Shown piece by piece: positions 31,960-35,188 of a stretch of DNA of 53,815 bases (position 1 is the stretch's first letter; each line of letters starts with the position of its first letter). Source of the DNA: Oscillospiraceae bacterium (GTDB lineage: Bacteria; Bacillota; Clostridia; Oscillospirales; UBA929); the NCBI GenBank assembly GCA_031254575.1, contig JAIRUE010000024.1:1-53815 (forward strand). The letters run 5' to 3'. The notes under the pieces are model-generated. The model was not told the DNA's origin. It worked only from the letters and a program-made list of their open reading frames with translations, and ran no database searches. A program made the position numbers and the translations under genes.

Positions 31960-31978
31960 CGGCATCCTCCCCAAAAGT

Positions 31979-32170
31979 TCAGTTCAGGGGCTGCCCCTCG
32001 GCTTTTTTCGCGCGGATTTCTTCCATTAAGCGGCGAAATTCCTGCGAACCCTCCCGGATTTCCGCGGCTATTTCTTCCCGTGTCATATGCTGATAGCGTT
32101 CATCGGCTTCCTCGCGGATACGGCGGATGTCATCTACGCCGAAGCTCTGATTGGGAATTGAATTATCCAT
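31979..32170 (-). CDS. small charged helical protein, probable antitoxin partner of the PIN protein
   Basis: 63 aa, DDIRRIREE...MTREEI; starts 11 bp after the PIN gene stop. Confidence 0.6.
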   Translation of the reverse strand: MDNSIPNQSFGVDDIRRIREEADERYQHMTREEIAAEIREGSQEFRRLMEEIRAKKAEGQPLN

Positions 32171-32181
32171 TTGAACCGCTC

Positions 32182-32655
32182 CTAACCTTTCAGTGCCGGC
32201 GGCGGCAGAATATTTATAAGGGACTTGCCGTTCAGCGCTGAAATCATACGAGCGCCCTCAATCGTTCTGTCGTTAATAAAATGCCTGAAATTCCATGAAT
32301 AAATTATACTGCACTCACTATATATAGCAGCGGCGATATGAAGGCGGTCGTTGGCGCTTCCGGGAGAAAGAATCCCATGCCGCTTAATATCCTCTTCAAT
32401 AGCGGTAATATCCTCGTTGTCTTCCGTCACAATCACAGTATATGGTATTTCGTTCAACAGGGCAAGCAGTTTTGAGCGTTTAGGATCGGGACACTTTCTT
32501 AACTCGTTTTCCGTCACGTCTGAAATGTGAACCTCATATCCCCCTTTTTTTAATATTTCCCAAAAGGCAAGCGTTTCAGCCATTTTCTCCGGCGTGTCCT
32601 CCTGGCACAGATAACTGATAGCCGAGGTGTCGAGGTATATCTTTCTCTTTAACAT
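32182..32655 (-). CDS. PIN-domain (VapC-like) ribonuclease
   Basis: IYLDTSAIS, SDVTENEL, NDRLHIAAA, SWNFRH acidic PIN motifs; AT-richer than flanks. Confidence 0.85.
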   Translation of the reverse strand: MLKRKIYLDTSAISYLCQEDTPEKMAETLAFWEILKKGGYEVHISDVTENELRKCPDPKRSKLLALLNEIPYTVIVTEDNEDITAIEEDIKRHGILSPGSANDRLHIAAAIYSECSIIYSWNFRHFINDRTIEGARMISALNGKSLINILPPPALKG

Positions 32656-32706
32656 CCGCTGTCTCCGCTTTCATTGTTTCCAAAGGTGCCCGCCTTTTCC
32701 GGCAAA

Positions 32707-32736
32707 GGGAGGGCGGCGGCGGTCCGCCGCCCTCCC
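32707..32736 (-). terminator. 13-bp stem hairpin downstream of pilA
   Basis: GGGAGGGCGGCGG-cggt-CCGCCGCCCTCCC, followed by TTTG on the minus strand. Confidence 0.55.
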
Positions 32737-32835
32737 GCCGTATTGTGGACTGTTCCGCGTCGGGTGCAAGCAGCGCGTTCATCCCCGGGGCTCAGCCGGG
32801 CGGTCGACCTCTCCGGCCGGGCCCGTTGTTAGTGC

Positions 32836-33216
32836 TTAGGGGTAAGCTACGCCAGTACCGCTGGTATCGCCAATTTCTATCGGGGGGTTGTTTTGAGATC
32901 TACCTGTTGTCAGGCTGACGCCAATACACATAGATCCTTGAAAATATAGGTCTACGGTTATGCCAGGAGCTGGCCCATTAATCTCAGCTGTTATTTGGGC
33001 ATTGGTTGGAGGAACAGTGCCTGTGGGGTCGGCCGCGACTATGGCAGCCATATACAGCGTCCGGCAGTCCGCCTCATCGGCGGCTCTGTTAGCGCGCTCA
33101 ATCACGCCGAGGATCGCCGGGGTCAGCGCCGCCACGAGGATCGCGATGATGACGATGACGACGATGAGCTCGATCAGGGTAAAGCCCTTGCGGTTGATCT
33201 TACGGAGTTTGTTCAT
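32836..33216 (-). CDS. pilA: major type IV pilin
   Basis: MNKLRKINRKG|FTLIELIVVIVIIAILVAALTP; AAGGAG RBS; 126 aa. Confidence 0.9.
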   Translation of the reverse strand: MNKLRKINRKGFTLIELIVVIVIIAILVAALTPAILGVIERANRAADEADCRTLYMAAIVAADPTGTVPPTNAQITAEINGPAPGITVDLYFQGSMCIGVSLTTGRSQNNPPIEIGDTSGTGVAYP

Positions 33217-33328
33217 GACCAAAGTCTCCTTTTTGCAATTTTATGTAAATCCCGTTGCACCTCGGAATTTGCACACGCTCTAAAGGATCGCGGGGATTAT
33301 GGAGAGACATTCCTCCTTTCTGTGTTTT

Positions 33329-33456
33329 GCTCCCTCCGGCGCTCCGTCACCGTCGCGGAAATTACTCCCTCCGGCGCTTCGCGCCACCTCCCTCACGAGG
33401 GAGGCTTGCCTAGCCCTCCTCTTGAGGAGGGTGCCGTCCGCAGACGGCGGGAGGAG
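33329..33456. repeat. palindrome-rich direct repeat, copy 1 (128 bp, REP-doublet-like)
   Basis: Near-identical to 33877-34005; contains the hairpins CCTCCCTC-ac-GAGGGAGG, CCCTCCTC-tt-GAGGAGGG and GCCGTC-cgca-GACGGC. Confidence 0.92.
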
Positions 33457-33812
33457 GGGTGACAATCTTTCACGGCTTTGTCAATCGCTTCGCAAACGGA
33501 CTTAAACCGGTTCATTATATCCGGGTTCGCAAAACGAATAACTTTCAGCCCGTAACTCTCAAGAATTTTTGTCCTTTCCGCATCATACGCAACGCCATCT
33601 TCAGTATAATGCTGGCCTCCGTCAAGTTCAATAACCAGTTTTGCGGAAAAACAATAGAAATCGACGATATAATTATCAATGGTCTTTTGCCTTTGAAATC
33701 TGGCCGGGTACTTTGAAAGGAAATCGTACCATAAGTGCTTTTCCTGCGGCGTCATCTCTTTCCTAAGCTGTTTTGCCCTCGGTATAAGGTTTCTGTTGTA
33801 CTCTAACGGCAC
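33393..33812 (-). CDS. DUF559 (Vsr-like PD-(D/E)XK) endonuclease
   Basis: RAKQLRKEMTPQEKHLW...FQRQ...YIVDFYC...LVIELDGGQH...D..RT..L...GLKVIRF.N; GTG at 33812 with GGGAGG RBS; the last ~21 codons read into the repeat. Confidence 0.92.
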   Translation of the reverse strand: MPLEYNRNLIPRAKQLRKEMTPQEKHLWYDFLSKYPARFQRQKTIDNYIVDFYCFSAKLVIELDGGQHYTEDGVAYDAERTKILESYGLKVIRFANPDIMNRFKSVCEAIDKAVKDCHPSSRRLRTAPSSRGGLGKPPS

Positions 33813-33876
33813 CTTATTTTCCCTCCCCGCCGGCCCGCTCACTTCCCCCCGGCGCTTCACGCCCCCCGCGGAAGTC

Positions 33877-34005
33877 GCTCCCTCCGGCGCTCCGTCACCG
33901 TCGTATAAATCACTCCCTCCGGCGCTTTGCGCCACCTCCCTCACGAGGGAGGCTTGCCTAGCCCTCCTCTTTGAGGAGGGTGCCGTCCGCAGACGGCGGG
34001 AGGAG
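33877..34005. repeat. palindrome-rich direct repeat, copy 2 (129 bp)
   Basis: Matches 33329-33456 except for a few substitutions and one extra T. Confidence 0.92.
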
Positions 34006-34031
34006 AGCTTCGCGGCTATCGGTCAGGACGG

Positions 34032-34108
34032 CTCCCCTTGGCGCTCCGCGCCCCCGCGGAAGTCGCTCCCTCCGGCGCTCCGCGCCACCTCCCTCACGAG
34101 GGAGGCTT
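34032..34108. repeat. partial third copy of the repeat
   Basis: CCCCCGCGGAAGTCGCTCCCTCCGGCGCTCC (also at 33863) and GCGCCACCTCCCTCACGAGGGAGGCTT. Confidence 0.85.
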
Positions 34109-34123
34109 AGGGTATATGCGCCC

Positions 34124-35188
34124 TCACATCCGCCCGACGGCGCTCAAAAACTCCGTCCGGTCGTTGGCTTTTTCCAGCGCGTGTTCGCGCCTGACGACGC
34201 CCTTGCGCACCAGATCGGCCAGATAATTATCGAGCAGCACCATGCCCTGCCGCGCGCTCGTCTGTATCGTGGAGTCGAGCTGGTGGCCCTTGTTCTCGCG
34301 GATGAGGTTGAGCACGGCGTCGGTGCCCAGCATGATCTCGAACGCGGCGACACGCCCCTTGCCCTCGGCCCTCGGCAGCAGCGTCTGGGTGATGACGCCC
34401 TTGAGGACGGAGGCGAGCTGGGTGCGGATCTGCTGCTGATTGTGCGGCGGGAAGACGTCGATCACACGGTCGATCGTCATGGCGGCGCCGGTGGTGTGCA
34501 GCGTGGAGAGGACCAGATGGCCCGTCTCGGCGGCGGTCACGGCGGCGGAGATGGTTTCATAGTCGCGCATCTCGCCCACAAGGATGACGTCCGGGTCCTC
34601 GCGCATCGCGCTGCGCAGCGACGCCGCGAAAGAGGCGACGTCCACGCCGACATCGCGCTGGTGGATGATCGACTTTTTCTGCGTATACACGTACTCAACG
34701 GGGTCCTCGACGGTGAGGATATGGCAGGCGCGGGTCGAGTTGATGTAATCGACCATCGCGGCCAGCGTGGTGGATTTGCCGGAACCCGTCGGCCCGGTGA
34801 CAAGGATCAGTCCGCGCGGCTCGTCGGCAAGCTGTCTCAGCACGGGCGGCAGGTTCAATTCCTCAAAGGTGGGGGTGTTTTCGTTGATGATGCGGATGAC
34901 GCAGGCGAGCTTCTGCTGCTGGCGGAACACGTTGACGCGGTGGCGCAGGTTGCCCCCGATGGAATAGCACATATCCACGTCACTGCCGTCGTCCAGTTCC
35001 CCGCGCTGGCGCTCGTCCAGCATCGAGACGATCAGGGCGTATTTTTCCTCCGGCGTCATGGCGAGGTCGGTCTCGATCAGCGTCCCGTCTATGCGGAAAA
35101 CCGGGTTGCGCGCGTAGGTGAGATGGATGTCGCTCGCCCGGCGTTCCCGCGCCATGAGAATGAGCTTTACAATGTCAATGTCCATCAA
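34124..35188 (-). CDS. pilT: pilus retraction ATPase
   Basis: ASDIHL, GPTGSGKSTT, TVEDPVE, REDPDVILVGEMRD, AETGHLVLSTLHT, AVLNLIRE (AIRNLIRE-like). Confidence 0.95.
   Translation of the reverse strand: MMDIDIVKLILMARERRASDIHLTYARNPVFRIDGTLIETDLAMTPEEKYALIVSMLDERQRGELDDGSDVDMCYSIGGNLRHRVNVFRQQQKLACVIRIINENTPTFEELNLPPVLRQLADEPRGLILVTGPTGSGKSTTLAAMVDYINSTRACHILTVEDPVEYVYTQKKSIIHQRDVGVDVASFAASLRSAMREDPDVILVGEMRDYETISAAVTAAETGHLVLSTLHTTGAAMTIDRVIDVFPPHNQQQIRTQLASVLKGVITQTLLPRAEGKGRVAAFEIMLGTDAVLNLIRENKGHQLDSTIQTSARQGMVLLDNYLADLVRKGVVRREHALEKANDRTEFLSAVGRM

Follow-up and report, generated by a model that had tools for sequence, protein, structure and literature searches.

The stretch of DNA analyzed here (the window) comprises 53,815 nucleotides (nt) of an Oscillospiraceae genome, which we refer to as G000. 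It contains a low-GC gene encoding a DUF559 (Vsr-like) protein, which sits on the minus strand within a pilus operon, between two direct repeats of 128/129 nt. Our analyses indicate that the locus belongs to a small cassette family, in which a DUF559 gene of 125 to 140 amino acids (aa) is tightly bracketed by inverted, structured units. Gene-less inverted doublets of the same unit family are dispersed in genomes, and the bracket spans phyla. Genomes have the cassette or lack it as a block, and high numbers of two unit families are restricted to genomes with the cognate nuclease clade. From these sequence patterns we infer an action of the nuclease on the repeats, and we give roughly even odds (a probability of about 0.5) to the reading in which action of the DUF559 nuclease on its own units propels their spread and host repair supplies the copying.

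The direct repeats lie 3' of the gene (33329-33456, copy 1) and 5' of it (33877-34005, copy 2), and they are 95.3% identical over 129 columns with one indel. Both contain, in the same order, a half-unit, a unit that we call U1, and a unit that we call U2, the last two forming an inverted doublet. In copy 1, the half-unit (33329..33363, minus strand) consists of the 3' part of the second hairpin and the GGAGGGAG tail and bears a recurring 14-nt core; it is followed by U1 copy a (33364..33406, minus strand) and U2 copy a (33412..33457, plus strand), the latter being the nearest unit downstream of the gene and in the opposite orientation to it ("R"). In copy 2, U1 copy b (33912..33954, minus strand) is the nearest full unit upstream and lies on the gene's strand ("L"), with U2 copy b at 33960..34006 (plus strand). 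A partial third copy (34030..34108, minus strand) is made up of a degenerate half-unit and U1 copy c (34065..34107, minus strand) and ends 16 nt from the pilT stop codon; identity is 65% over 95 nt (34030-34124) and 97.7% in a 43-nt core (34066-34108). A degenerate unit remnant, a 76% copy, occupies 33843..33876 (minus strand) between repeat copy 2 and the ribosome-binding site of the gene. The GC content is 0.39 to 0.41 in the DUF559 gene, 0.68 to 0.70 in the repeats, and 0.59 in the genome. An earlier examination of the letters of this DNA and its open reading frames (ORFs), the sequence-only reading, had described an AT-richer DUF559 gene between near-identical repeats with a partial third copy, and these measurements bear it out. 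It had also counted seven sites of the core: five of them are exact (33330, 33365, 33878, 33913, and 34066), while those at 33843 and 34032 are degenerate, with 76% and 63% identity over 51 nt.

Each unit has the order pyrimidine arm, purine arm, second hairpin, and purine tail mirroring the purine arm. In U1 (minus strand), these elements are the arm CCTCCCTC, a short loop, the arm GAGGGAGG, the hairpin GGCGC-GAA-GCGCC, and the mirror tail GGAGGGAG; in U2 (plus strand), they are the arm CCCTCCTC, a loop, the arm GAGGAGGG, the hairpin GCCGTC-CGCA-GACGGC, and the mirror tail GGGAGGAG. The tail is an exact mirror of the purine arm in both units. The U1 and U2 calls of a structural detector (U1 copy a among them) agreed with those of a covariance model, R1, built from 43 aligned units, so the inverted doublet of like units that had been read from the letters was recovered by two methods. 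R1 found five units within ~750 nt at the locus (U1 copies a, b, and c, 45.2, 46.2, and 41.4 bits; U2 copies a and b, 42.8 and 51.9 bits) and none in the remaining 53 kb of the window.

When folded as single-stranded DNA with tools that model Watson-Crick pairs only, single U1 and U2 units were more stable than shuffled sequences (z = -3.4 [-3.43 for U1 copy a] and -3.35, respectively), with 0 of 200 shuffles equaling them; the z score of U1 copy c was -2.40. The minimum-energy fold of U2 is the alternative pairing of the pyrimidine arm with the tail, as expected if the tail competes with the first hairpin, which the sequence-only reading had proposed. In the 43-unit alignment, 13 of 15 pairs varied on both sides, including all seven pairs of the second hairpin, and the paired share fell from 92.6% to 45 to 53% in slid-partner controls; however, this paired share is inflated because the detector that picked the units demanded a perfect first stem and middle hairpin. 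The informative part of this alignment is the second hairpin, where pairing is kept while the sequence is free.

The mirror relationship between tail and arm extends well beyond the window. Scored by a rule that matches G with G and A with A or T, the tail agreed with the mirror of its own purine arm at 0.88, compared with 0.70 for tails borrowed from other families (233 of the 255 R1 hits of at least 30 nt; the 22 others were dropped for having no first hairpin or too short a tail). A rule under which the tail repeats the purine arm directly was rejected: it scored only 0.71 (control, 0.665), worse than the mirror.

The minus-strand ORF at 33393..33944 matched Pfam DUF559 (PF04480) with 110.2 bits (cutoff, 20.6; E = 6e-32), the domain covering ~33471-33782. 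Alignment to homologues placed the start at a GTG codon (33810-33812) rather than at the listed 33944, which falls within the repeat, and the gene is thus 33393..33812, or 139 codons plus the stop. The motif GGGGAGGG is found 8 to 9 nt 5' of the GTG. Repeat copy 1 encodes the ~20 C-terminal codons and the stop codon, in line with the earlier remark that the ORF ends inside the repeat. An AlphaFold2 model of the protein (pLDDT, 91.4) was closest in Foldseek to the DUF559 structure 3hrl (E = 5.9e-6), followed by 3r3p, the catalytic domain of the homing endonuclease I-Bth0305I (E = 7.6e-4), and Vsr (1cw0; E = 0.098). A profile search of Protein Data Bank (PDB) sequences likewise returned 3hrl (E = 4e-27) and 3r3p (E = 0.0046, or about 0.005). 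By profile and predicted structure, the window protein is a DUF559 family member with a predicted Vsr-like alpha/beta fold. The acidic and histidine residues D53, E64, D66, H70, and D79 were invariant in 17/17 sequences.

Pairing of DUF559 genes with such units is not confined to this genome. PF04480 matches were present in 13 of 41 relatives (kin genomes, for which counts are given without a formal test), at 1 to 4 per genome and often near contig ends. By eye, nearly all of the 18 DUF559 loci in these relatives were bracketed by units of like architecture and other sequence, and flank-to-flank alignment recovered flanking inverted or direct repeats in 16 of them. We also collected 80 further loci from a species-level genome collection, drawn from Clostridia, Negativicutes, Cyanobacteria, one Ktedonobacteria, and one Desulfovibrionaceae. 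Ungapped flank-to-flank scores of at least 30 were obtained for 44/78 DUF559 loci but for only 2/141 shifted controls, and the strict structural detector found 1.67 units per kb in the 200-nt flanks versus 0.09 per kb beyond 400 nt (97 loci). With R1, a unit lay within 200 nt in 74 of the 80 loci (38 two-sided, 24 downstream only, 12 upstream only, and 6 with none), at a density of 4.55 per kb in the 200-nt flanks versus 0.10 per kb more than 400 nt away. Loci that had fed no sequence into R1 gave much the same picture (48/54 with a unit; 4.24 versus 0.14 per kb). The enrichment of DUF559 beside these units, which the sequence-only reading had raised as a test across Clostridia, thus extends to Negativicutes and Cyanobacteria. 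A literature search, conducted mostly outside subscription journals, returned no paper tying DUF559 to flanking or dispersed repeats.

The commonest form of the bracket has an L unit nearest upstream and an R unit nearest downstream (30 of the 38 two-sided loci). In L007 and L010, the inverted units reach 52 to 53 nt and are 96 to 100% identical, resembling terminal inverted repeats, and cyanobacterial loci carry a short unit with a 3-nt second loop in place of the second hairpin. In 95 of 98 loci, the AT content of the DUF559 gene exceeded that of the surrounding DNA, the median difference being 11 points. Across the collection, the start codon frequently follows right after the tail, and the stop frequently falls within the far unit. 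In six loci (L042, L043, L047, L049, L054, and L058), there is no upstream unit, and both units (L, spacer, R) are downstream; in this clade, the region ~100 nt upstream of the gene instead contains a promoter-like TTG...TATAAT stretch and a conserved hairpin.

The position of the units next to the start and stop codons raises the question of whether they serve the gene in cis, either as RNA hairpins that switch the ribosome-binding site or stabilize the transcript or as inverted repeats that mediate programmed inversion of the gene. The GGAGGGAG tail is Shine-Dalgarno-like and lies directly 5' of the start codon in many cassettes, and the pyrimidine arm is able to pair with either purine block. 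"DUF559 domain-containing protein" is also enriched among predicted targets of programmed inversion, with an odds ratio of 14.3 in a table of PMC9881135, an enrichment that probably reflects the same flanking inverted repeats. Nevertheless, cis-regulation leaves the dozens to hundreds of gene-less doublets elsewhere unexplained, the tails of several families are unlike a ribosome-binding site, and the full units in the window are ~100 nt from the start codon. As for inversion, there is no recombinase near the window gene. We consider a purely cis-acting role very improbable.

When unit type was compared with a 98-row tree of DUF559 domains, a check that the sequence-only reading had suggested, the arms of the unit nearest to each gene tracked the protein clade. 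The type II clade has a CCCCTCC arm in all five labeled rows, the cyanobacterial clade has C-run arms in 10/10 rows (nine CCCCCC(C)T and one TCCCCCCC), and the group containing L003, L004, L007, and L010 has CCCTCTTT-type arms. In six genomes with two DUF559 genes, each gene is surrounded by a different unit family. Since such concordance could come from linkage or descent alone, we also counted dispersed copies, using patterns for the CCCTCTTT and CCCCTCC families because R1 is weak on these (as it is on E. coli families). The CCCCTCC hairpin occurred in 19, 31, 8, 36, and 103 copies in five of six type II-bearing relatives, the sixth having a variant arm, compared with 0 to 4 copies in 35 others. 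For the CCCTCTTT hairpin, the counts were 9, 15, 69, 160, and 16 in the five genomes bearing the matching clade, compared with 0 to 5 in 36 others. Sister species of one genus differ in the abundance of the cognate unit.

R1 counts per genome, which are lower bounds given that no more than 150 candidates were scored, reached up to 113 or more hits per relative, and at least 10 units were found in 10/12 DUF559-positive relatives versus 4/29 DUF559-negative ones. The dispersed copies in G028 take the form of inverted doublets of ~140 nt that are nearly identical and belong to the families found around its two DUF559 genes; many of them lie at contig ends. A stretch of ~15 kb in another relative (G019:C2, ~35 to 50 kb) holds more than 20 units of the CCCCTCC and CCCTCTTT families, alternating every 1 to 1.5 kb and far denser than in the rest of G019. 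The gene-less units of G000 are an array of three R-type units and one L-type unit (C24:11380-11560) and, as judged by eye, an inverted doublet (C50:1620-1720) and a single U1-like unit whose second hairpin is the same as that in the window (C37:15504-15550).

Genome comparisons show the cassette to be gained or lost as a block. The gyrB-gyrA spacer of G000 is empty, reading TAA atacat AGGAGG (stop codon, 6 nt, and ribosome-binding site), and at that very point G001, from the same genus, carries an insertion in which a DUF559 gene stands between a unit and an inverted unit; no target-site duplication is evident at this, the one clean junction. G005 carries another DUF559 cassette in the gyrB-gyrA region. 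Two cassettes of a single genome, L047 and L049, are 95% identical over ~690 nt and have unrelated flanks, and the window gene with its downstream doublet is collinear with a G005 cassette at a different site (70% over 448 nt). The L047/L049 block extends to the start codon of the next gene. The cassette at L005 (G026:C29) is flanked by a 39-nt direct duplication of 100% identity that covers the 3' end of the upstream gene, and that at L091 is flanked by a direct duplication of host DNA of at least 28 nt; both differ in this respect from the clean G001 junction. In L107, the 3' end of another DUF559 gene persists as a remnant ~160 to 130 nt upstream of the intact cassette gene, so cassettes appear to be tandem or nested. 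At L008 (G005:C40, ~1940 to 2440), a small ORF that is GIY-YIG-like by eye lies between the downstream doublet and gyrA and is a candidate second small nuclease-type gene in the gyrB-gyrA hot spot.

In the window itself, the cassette lies at a hypervariable point of the pilus operon and shares the strand of its neighbors. The interval from pilT to the prepilin peptidase gene (31974-34124 in the window; loci L032 to L037) varies widely in the genus, holding nothing in G003, a pilin gene alone in G002, PIN and pilin genes in G006, a zeta-toxin-like ORF in G001 and G007, and a pilin gene plus a different DUF559 cassette in G001 and G005. The DUF559 genes of those two other genomes in this interval are at a different position and share 52% and 39% identity. 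Because the gene content is so variable, no clean empty pilT-pilin site could be defined among the genomes of the genus. Of the empty sites that the sequence-only reading had proposed looking for between pilT and the pilin gene, then, none has a clean junction, and it is the gyrB-gyrA spacer that provides one for a related cassette.

Clean occupied and empty sites are also what a homing-type selfish gene would leave behind. In that explanation, the units are targets and not products: the nuclease would cut gene-less arrays, their repair from a gene-bearing copy would pass the gene on, and the units would multiply by other means. The kinship to the I-Bth0305I catalytic domain in both the sequence and Foldseek searches is in keeping with it, as are the placement of the gene between doublets, not within them, and the AT-richness relative to the flanks, a trait of horizontally moving genes. 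The EDxHD/I-Bth0305I family (PDB 3r3p), named in PMC3424549 and PMC9403480, shares with the window gene a Vsr-like catalytic fold, a sequence similarity that is weak yet significant, and the behavior of a selfish, horizontally moving gene with occupied and empty sites. In contrast, the DUF559 gene of the window is free-standing and bracketed by repeats that also occur gene-less, and its product, at ~139 aa in all, has no extra DNA-binding domain. The gene is intergenic, between pilT and the pilin gene and outside any intron or intein; no such context was found, and an Rfam scan of 32600-34700 at E values up to 1 matched nothing. Moreover, only one or two DUF559 genes are present where cognate units number from dozens to more than 100 per genome, although every array would be a target, and homing leaves the near-absence of the unit family in nuclease-less sister genomes unexplained. 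We therefore regard homing as unlikely.

Alternatively, the nuclease may be a passenger: the units could be unstable triplex- or hairpin-forming DNA or MITE-like elements that are moved by another factor, with DUF559 being a captured repair or defense nuclease. The interval from pilT to the peptidase gene, a hot spot that also receives PIN toxin, zeta-like, and pilin genes in the genus, fits this picture, and units persist without DUF559 in some genomes. Triplex motif (TM) repeats mark rearrangement-prone E. coli loci according to PMC4666352, and the Caulobacter DUF559 protein VsrA is tied to cytosine methylation and DNA damage in PMC12907096. A captured nuclease would not, however, be expected amid at least six sequence-distinct unit families, each bracketing a DUF559 gene of the matching clade, nor would the tail so often be the ribosome-binding site and the far unit encode the C terminus. 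The ~45-fold lower unit density in DNA more than 400 nt away and the cognate specificity of unit families between sister genomes likewise argue against it, and we find this explanation quite unlikely. VsrA (PMC12907096) and Vsr share superfamily and fold with the window protein; in contrast to them, the window gene has no adjoining cytosine methyltransferase gene, has a low GC content, is embedded in repeats, and belongs to a patchily distributed family (13/41 relatives).

REP/REPIN sequences are short palindromic units, mostly intergenic and often arranged as inverted doublets, whose number differs sharply between close relatives; the RAYT gene encodes a small enzyme, is present in one or two copies per genome, and is flanked by inverted units, each lineage having its own unit family. 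The DUF559 system resembles this arrangement in that its units are dispersed as inverted doublets and in many copies in relatives, in that a low-copy gene is flanked by inverted units of its own family, and in that nuclease lineage and unit family are cognate, a correspondence to which gene-unit linkage may contribute. It differs in its enzyme, a Vsr-like PD-(D/E)XK protein in place of an HUH Y1 transposase, and in its units, which have a mirror purine tail and two hairpins and lack a GTAG/CGTC tag.

Y1_Tnp (PF01797) was absent from G000 and from G001, G005, G023, and G026, four of the nine unit-rich relatives. Strong Y1 matches were confined to genomes with 0 to 3 units, and six weak Y1-like loci in relatives had no unit within ~1 kb. 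The RAYT hypothesis was rejected on these grounds: HUH (Y1) transposases do not account for the units, as the sequence-only reading had anticipated in suggesting a RAYT-independent system. As to known transposase classes generally, no transposase domain was detected in five ORFs scanned around the locus, and Y1_Tnp was lacking genome-wide (other families were not searched genome-wide). DUF559 is the sole ORF of the cassette, which distinguishes the latter from an insertion sequence or MITE with a known transposase despite the terminal-inverted-repeat-like units of L007 and L010.

In our preferred reading, the DUF559 protein would act in trans on its repeats, in the role that RAYT has for REPINs. 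What it recognizes may be the folded unit, through its hairpins or perhaps an intrastrand triplex, or else the doubled purine motif, and nicking or cutting would take place there. The doublets, gene included, would then be copied to new places by host repair, recombination, or replication restart; a nuclease alone cannot rejoin DNA, and the copying step would therefore have to be the host's. If this reading is correct, the REPIN/RAYT idea extends to a second, unrelated enzyme class. To our knowledge, hardly any biology has been assigned to the large DUF559 family.

In architecture, the units resemble the BoxC/PIT/TM repeats, a known orphan class, a likeness that the sequence-only reading had not drawn. 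The G/C-rich TM motif consists of a C-rich block and two G-rich blocks, with a loop of 3 to 6 nt before the first G-rich block and one of 3 nt between the two, and has 3,610 copies in 262 proteobacterial genomes (Holder et al. 2015; PMC4666352). According to the same paper, these repeats, familiar since the 1990s, are spread over hundreds of genomes and found at unstable loci, with their function and mobilizing activity unassigned; their numbers are very unlike among close relatives, rearrangement is raised around copies, and transposase or integrase remnants were "never found" by TM motifs. The term endonuclease does not occur in PMC4666352. The window units share with TM repeats the order of pyrimidine, purine, and mirrored second purine blocks, and both are GC-rich, intergenic, conserved within a genome, variable in copy number, markers of variable loci, and without a transposase; the short form at cyanobacterial DUF559 loci even has the 3-nt second loop.

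The window units nevertheless do not meet the E. coli consensus, TMECO, which has 9-nt blocks CCCTCNCCC / GGGNGAGGG with loops of 3 to 6 and 3 nt (PMC4666352). Their blocks are 8 nt (CCTCCCTC or CCCTCCTC), not CCCTCNCCC, and their second loop is a 13- to 17-nt hairpin. R1 does not match an E. coli TMECO copy, and the TM finder described in PMC4666352 would miss units of the window type because its loops are limited to 1 to 6 nt. We put forward only tentatively, with the odds somewhat against it, the wider proposal that DUF559 may be the missing partner of BoxC/PIT/TM repeats in at least Bacillota, Cyanobacteria, and Proteobacteria, a structure-specific nuclease that would spread hairpin- and triplex-forming doublets via host repair. 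Nuclease and repeats would then represent a new kind of mobile DNA, with a Vsr-like nuclease as the driver in place of a transposase.

E. coli offers a view of this proposal in Proteobacteria. The sole DUF559 gene of E. coli K-12, ycjD, has a canonical TMECO copy ~170 nt downstream and a degenerate TM block over its stop codon. Among 5,426 complete E. coli genomes, 3,378 possess ycjD. Between ycjD and the TMECO copy (L174, 5250 to 5410), the last ~45 nt of ycjD recur in diverged form, which looks like the footprint of an earlier rearrangement. EDL933 was considered as an empty ycjD site and set aside: an MFS transporter gene follows sapF in place of ycjD-fabI, and this is therefore no simple deletion. 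E. coli genomes have 1 to 29 TMECO-like places (median, 16). Four of 16 chromosomes tested carry DUF559, with 26, 27, and 28 places and, for K-12, 23 according to PMC4666352. These counts are compatible with higher numbers alongside the nuclease and with persistence after its loss.

Several observations weigh against the view that the nuclease drives the spread of its units, in addition to the preselected stems of the 43-unit alignment. The 12 E. coli chromosomes without DUF559 still have 1, 1, 1, 1, 3, 7, 8, 12, 13, 13, 15, and 16 TMECO-like places, and the E. coli sample is small, follows phylogroups, and was partly chosen via the ycjD-adjacent TMECO copy. Among the relatives, G006, G007, G015, and G023, with no detected DUF559 gene, bear 16 to 91 units (completeness, 79 to 93%), and G028 also has unit families for which no cognate gene was found. 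The physical linkage of gene and units means that clade-unit concordance would also be expected from simple co-inheritance. Of the four computational checks put forward in the sequence-only reading, three (enrichment beside the units, covariation with nuclease phylogeny, and an empty site for a related cassette) gave the outcome it had foreseen. The genome-wide copies that it had proposed counting turned out to be few in G000 itself: R1 gave 10 hits, 5 of them at the window locus and at least 2 on C24, BLAST and exact motifs gave just a few partial copies (on C37, C50, C24, and C5), and no units were found at the contig ends of this genome. Since the family is so small here, the cassette may be a recent arrival or a decaying remnant. 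Finally, we know of no strand-transfer chemistry for the PD-(D/E)XK fold of DUF559, nor of any route by which a PD-(D/E)XK nuclease joins strands.

Should DUF559 nonetheless prove to be the partner of the BoxC/PIT/TM repeats, the patchy copy numbers of these repeats and the genomic instability near them would be explained, and a cognate nuclease-repeat partnership would give both DUF559 and the BoxC/PIT/TM repeats a testable role. The repeats also matter for annotation, given that they lengthen DUF559 reading frames, break assemblies of metagenome-assembled genomes (many units lie at contig ends), and are scored as signals of programmed inversion.

The cassette is flanked in the window by two pilus genes on its own strand. 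Upstream is a gene for a PilT-like ATPase (34124..35188, minus strand; Pfam T2SSE, E = 6e-50), and downstream is a pilin-like gene with an N-terminal methylation motif (32836..33222, minus strand; Pfam N_methyl, E = 8e-10); both are outside the cassette. Between the pilin and prepilin peptidase genes, still inside the pilus operon, lie a PIN-domain gene (32182-32655, minus strand; Pfam E = 2e-8) and, just 3' of it, an ORF of 63 aa (31979-32170). This stretch is also low in GC (0.44 to 0.49), and the two genes look like a toxin-antitoxin pair. A related pair of a PIN-domain gene and a small ORF lies directly 3' of pilT in G006.

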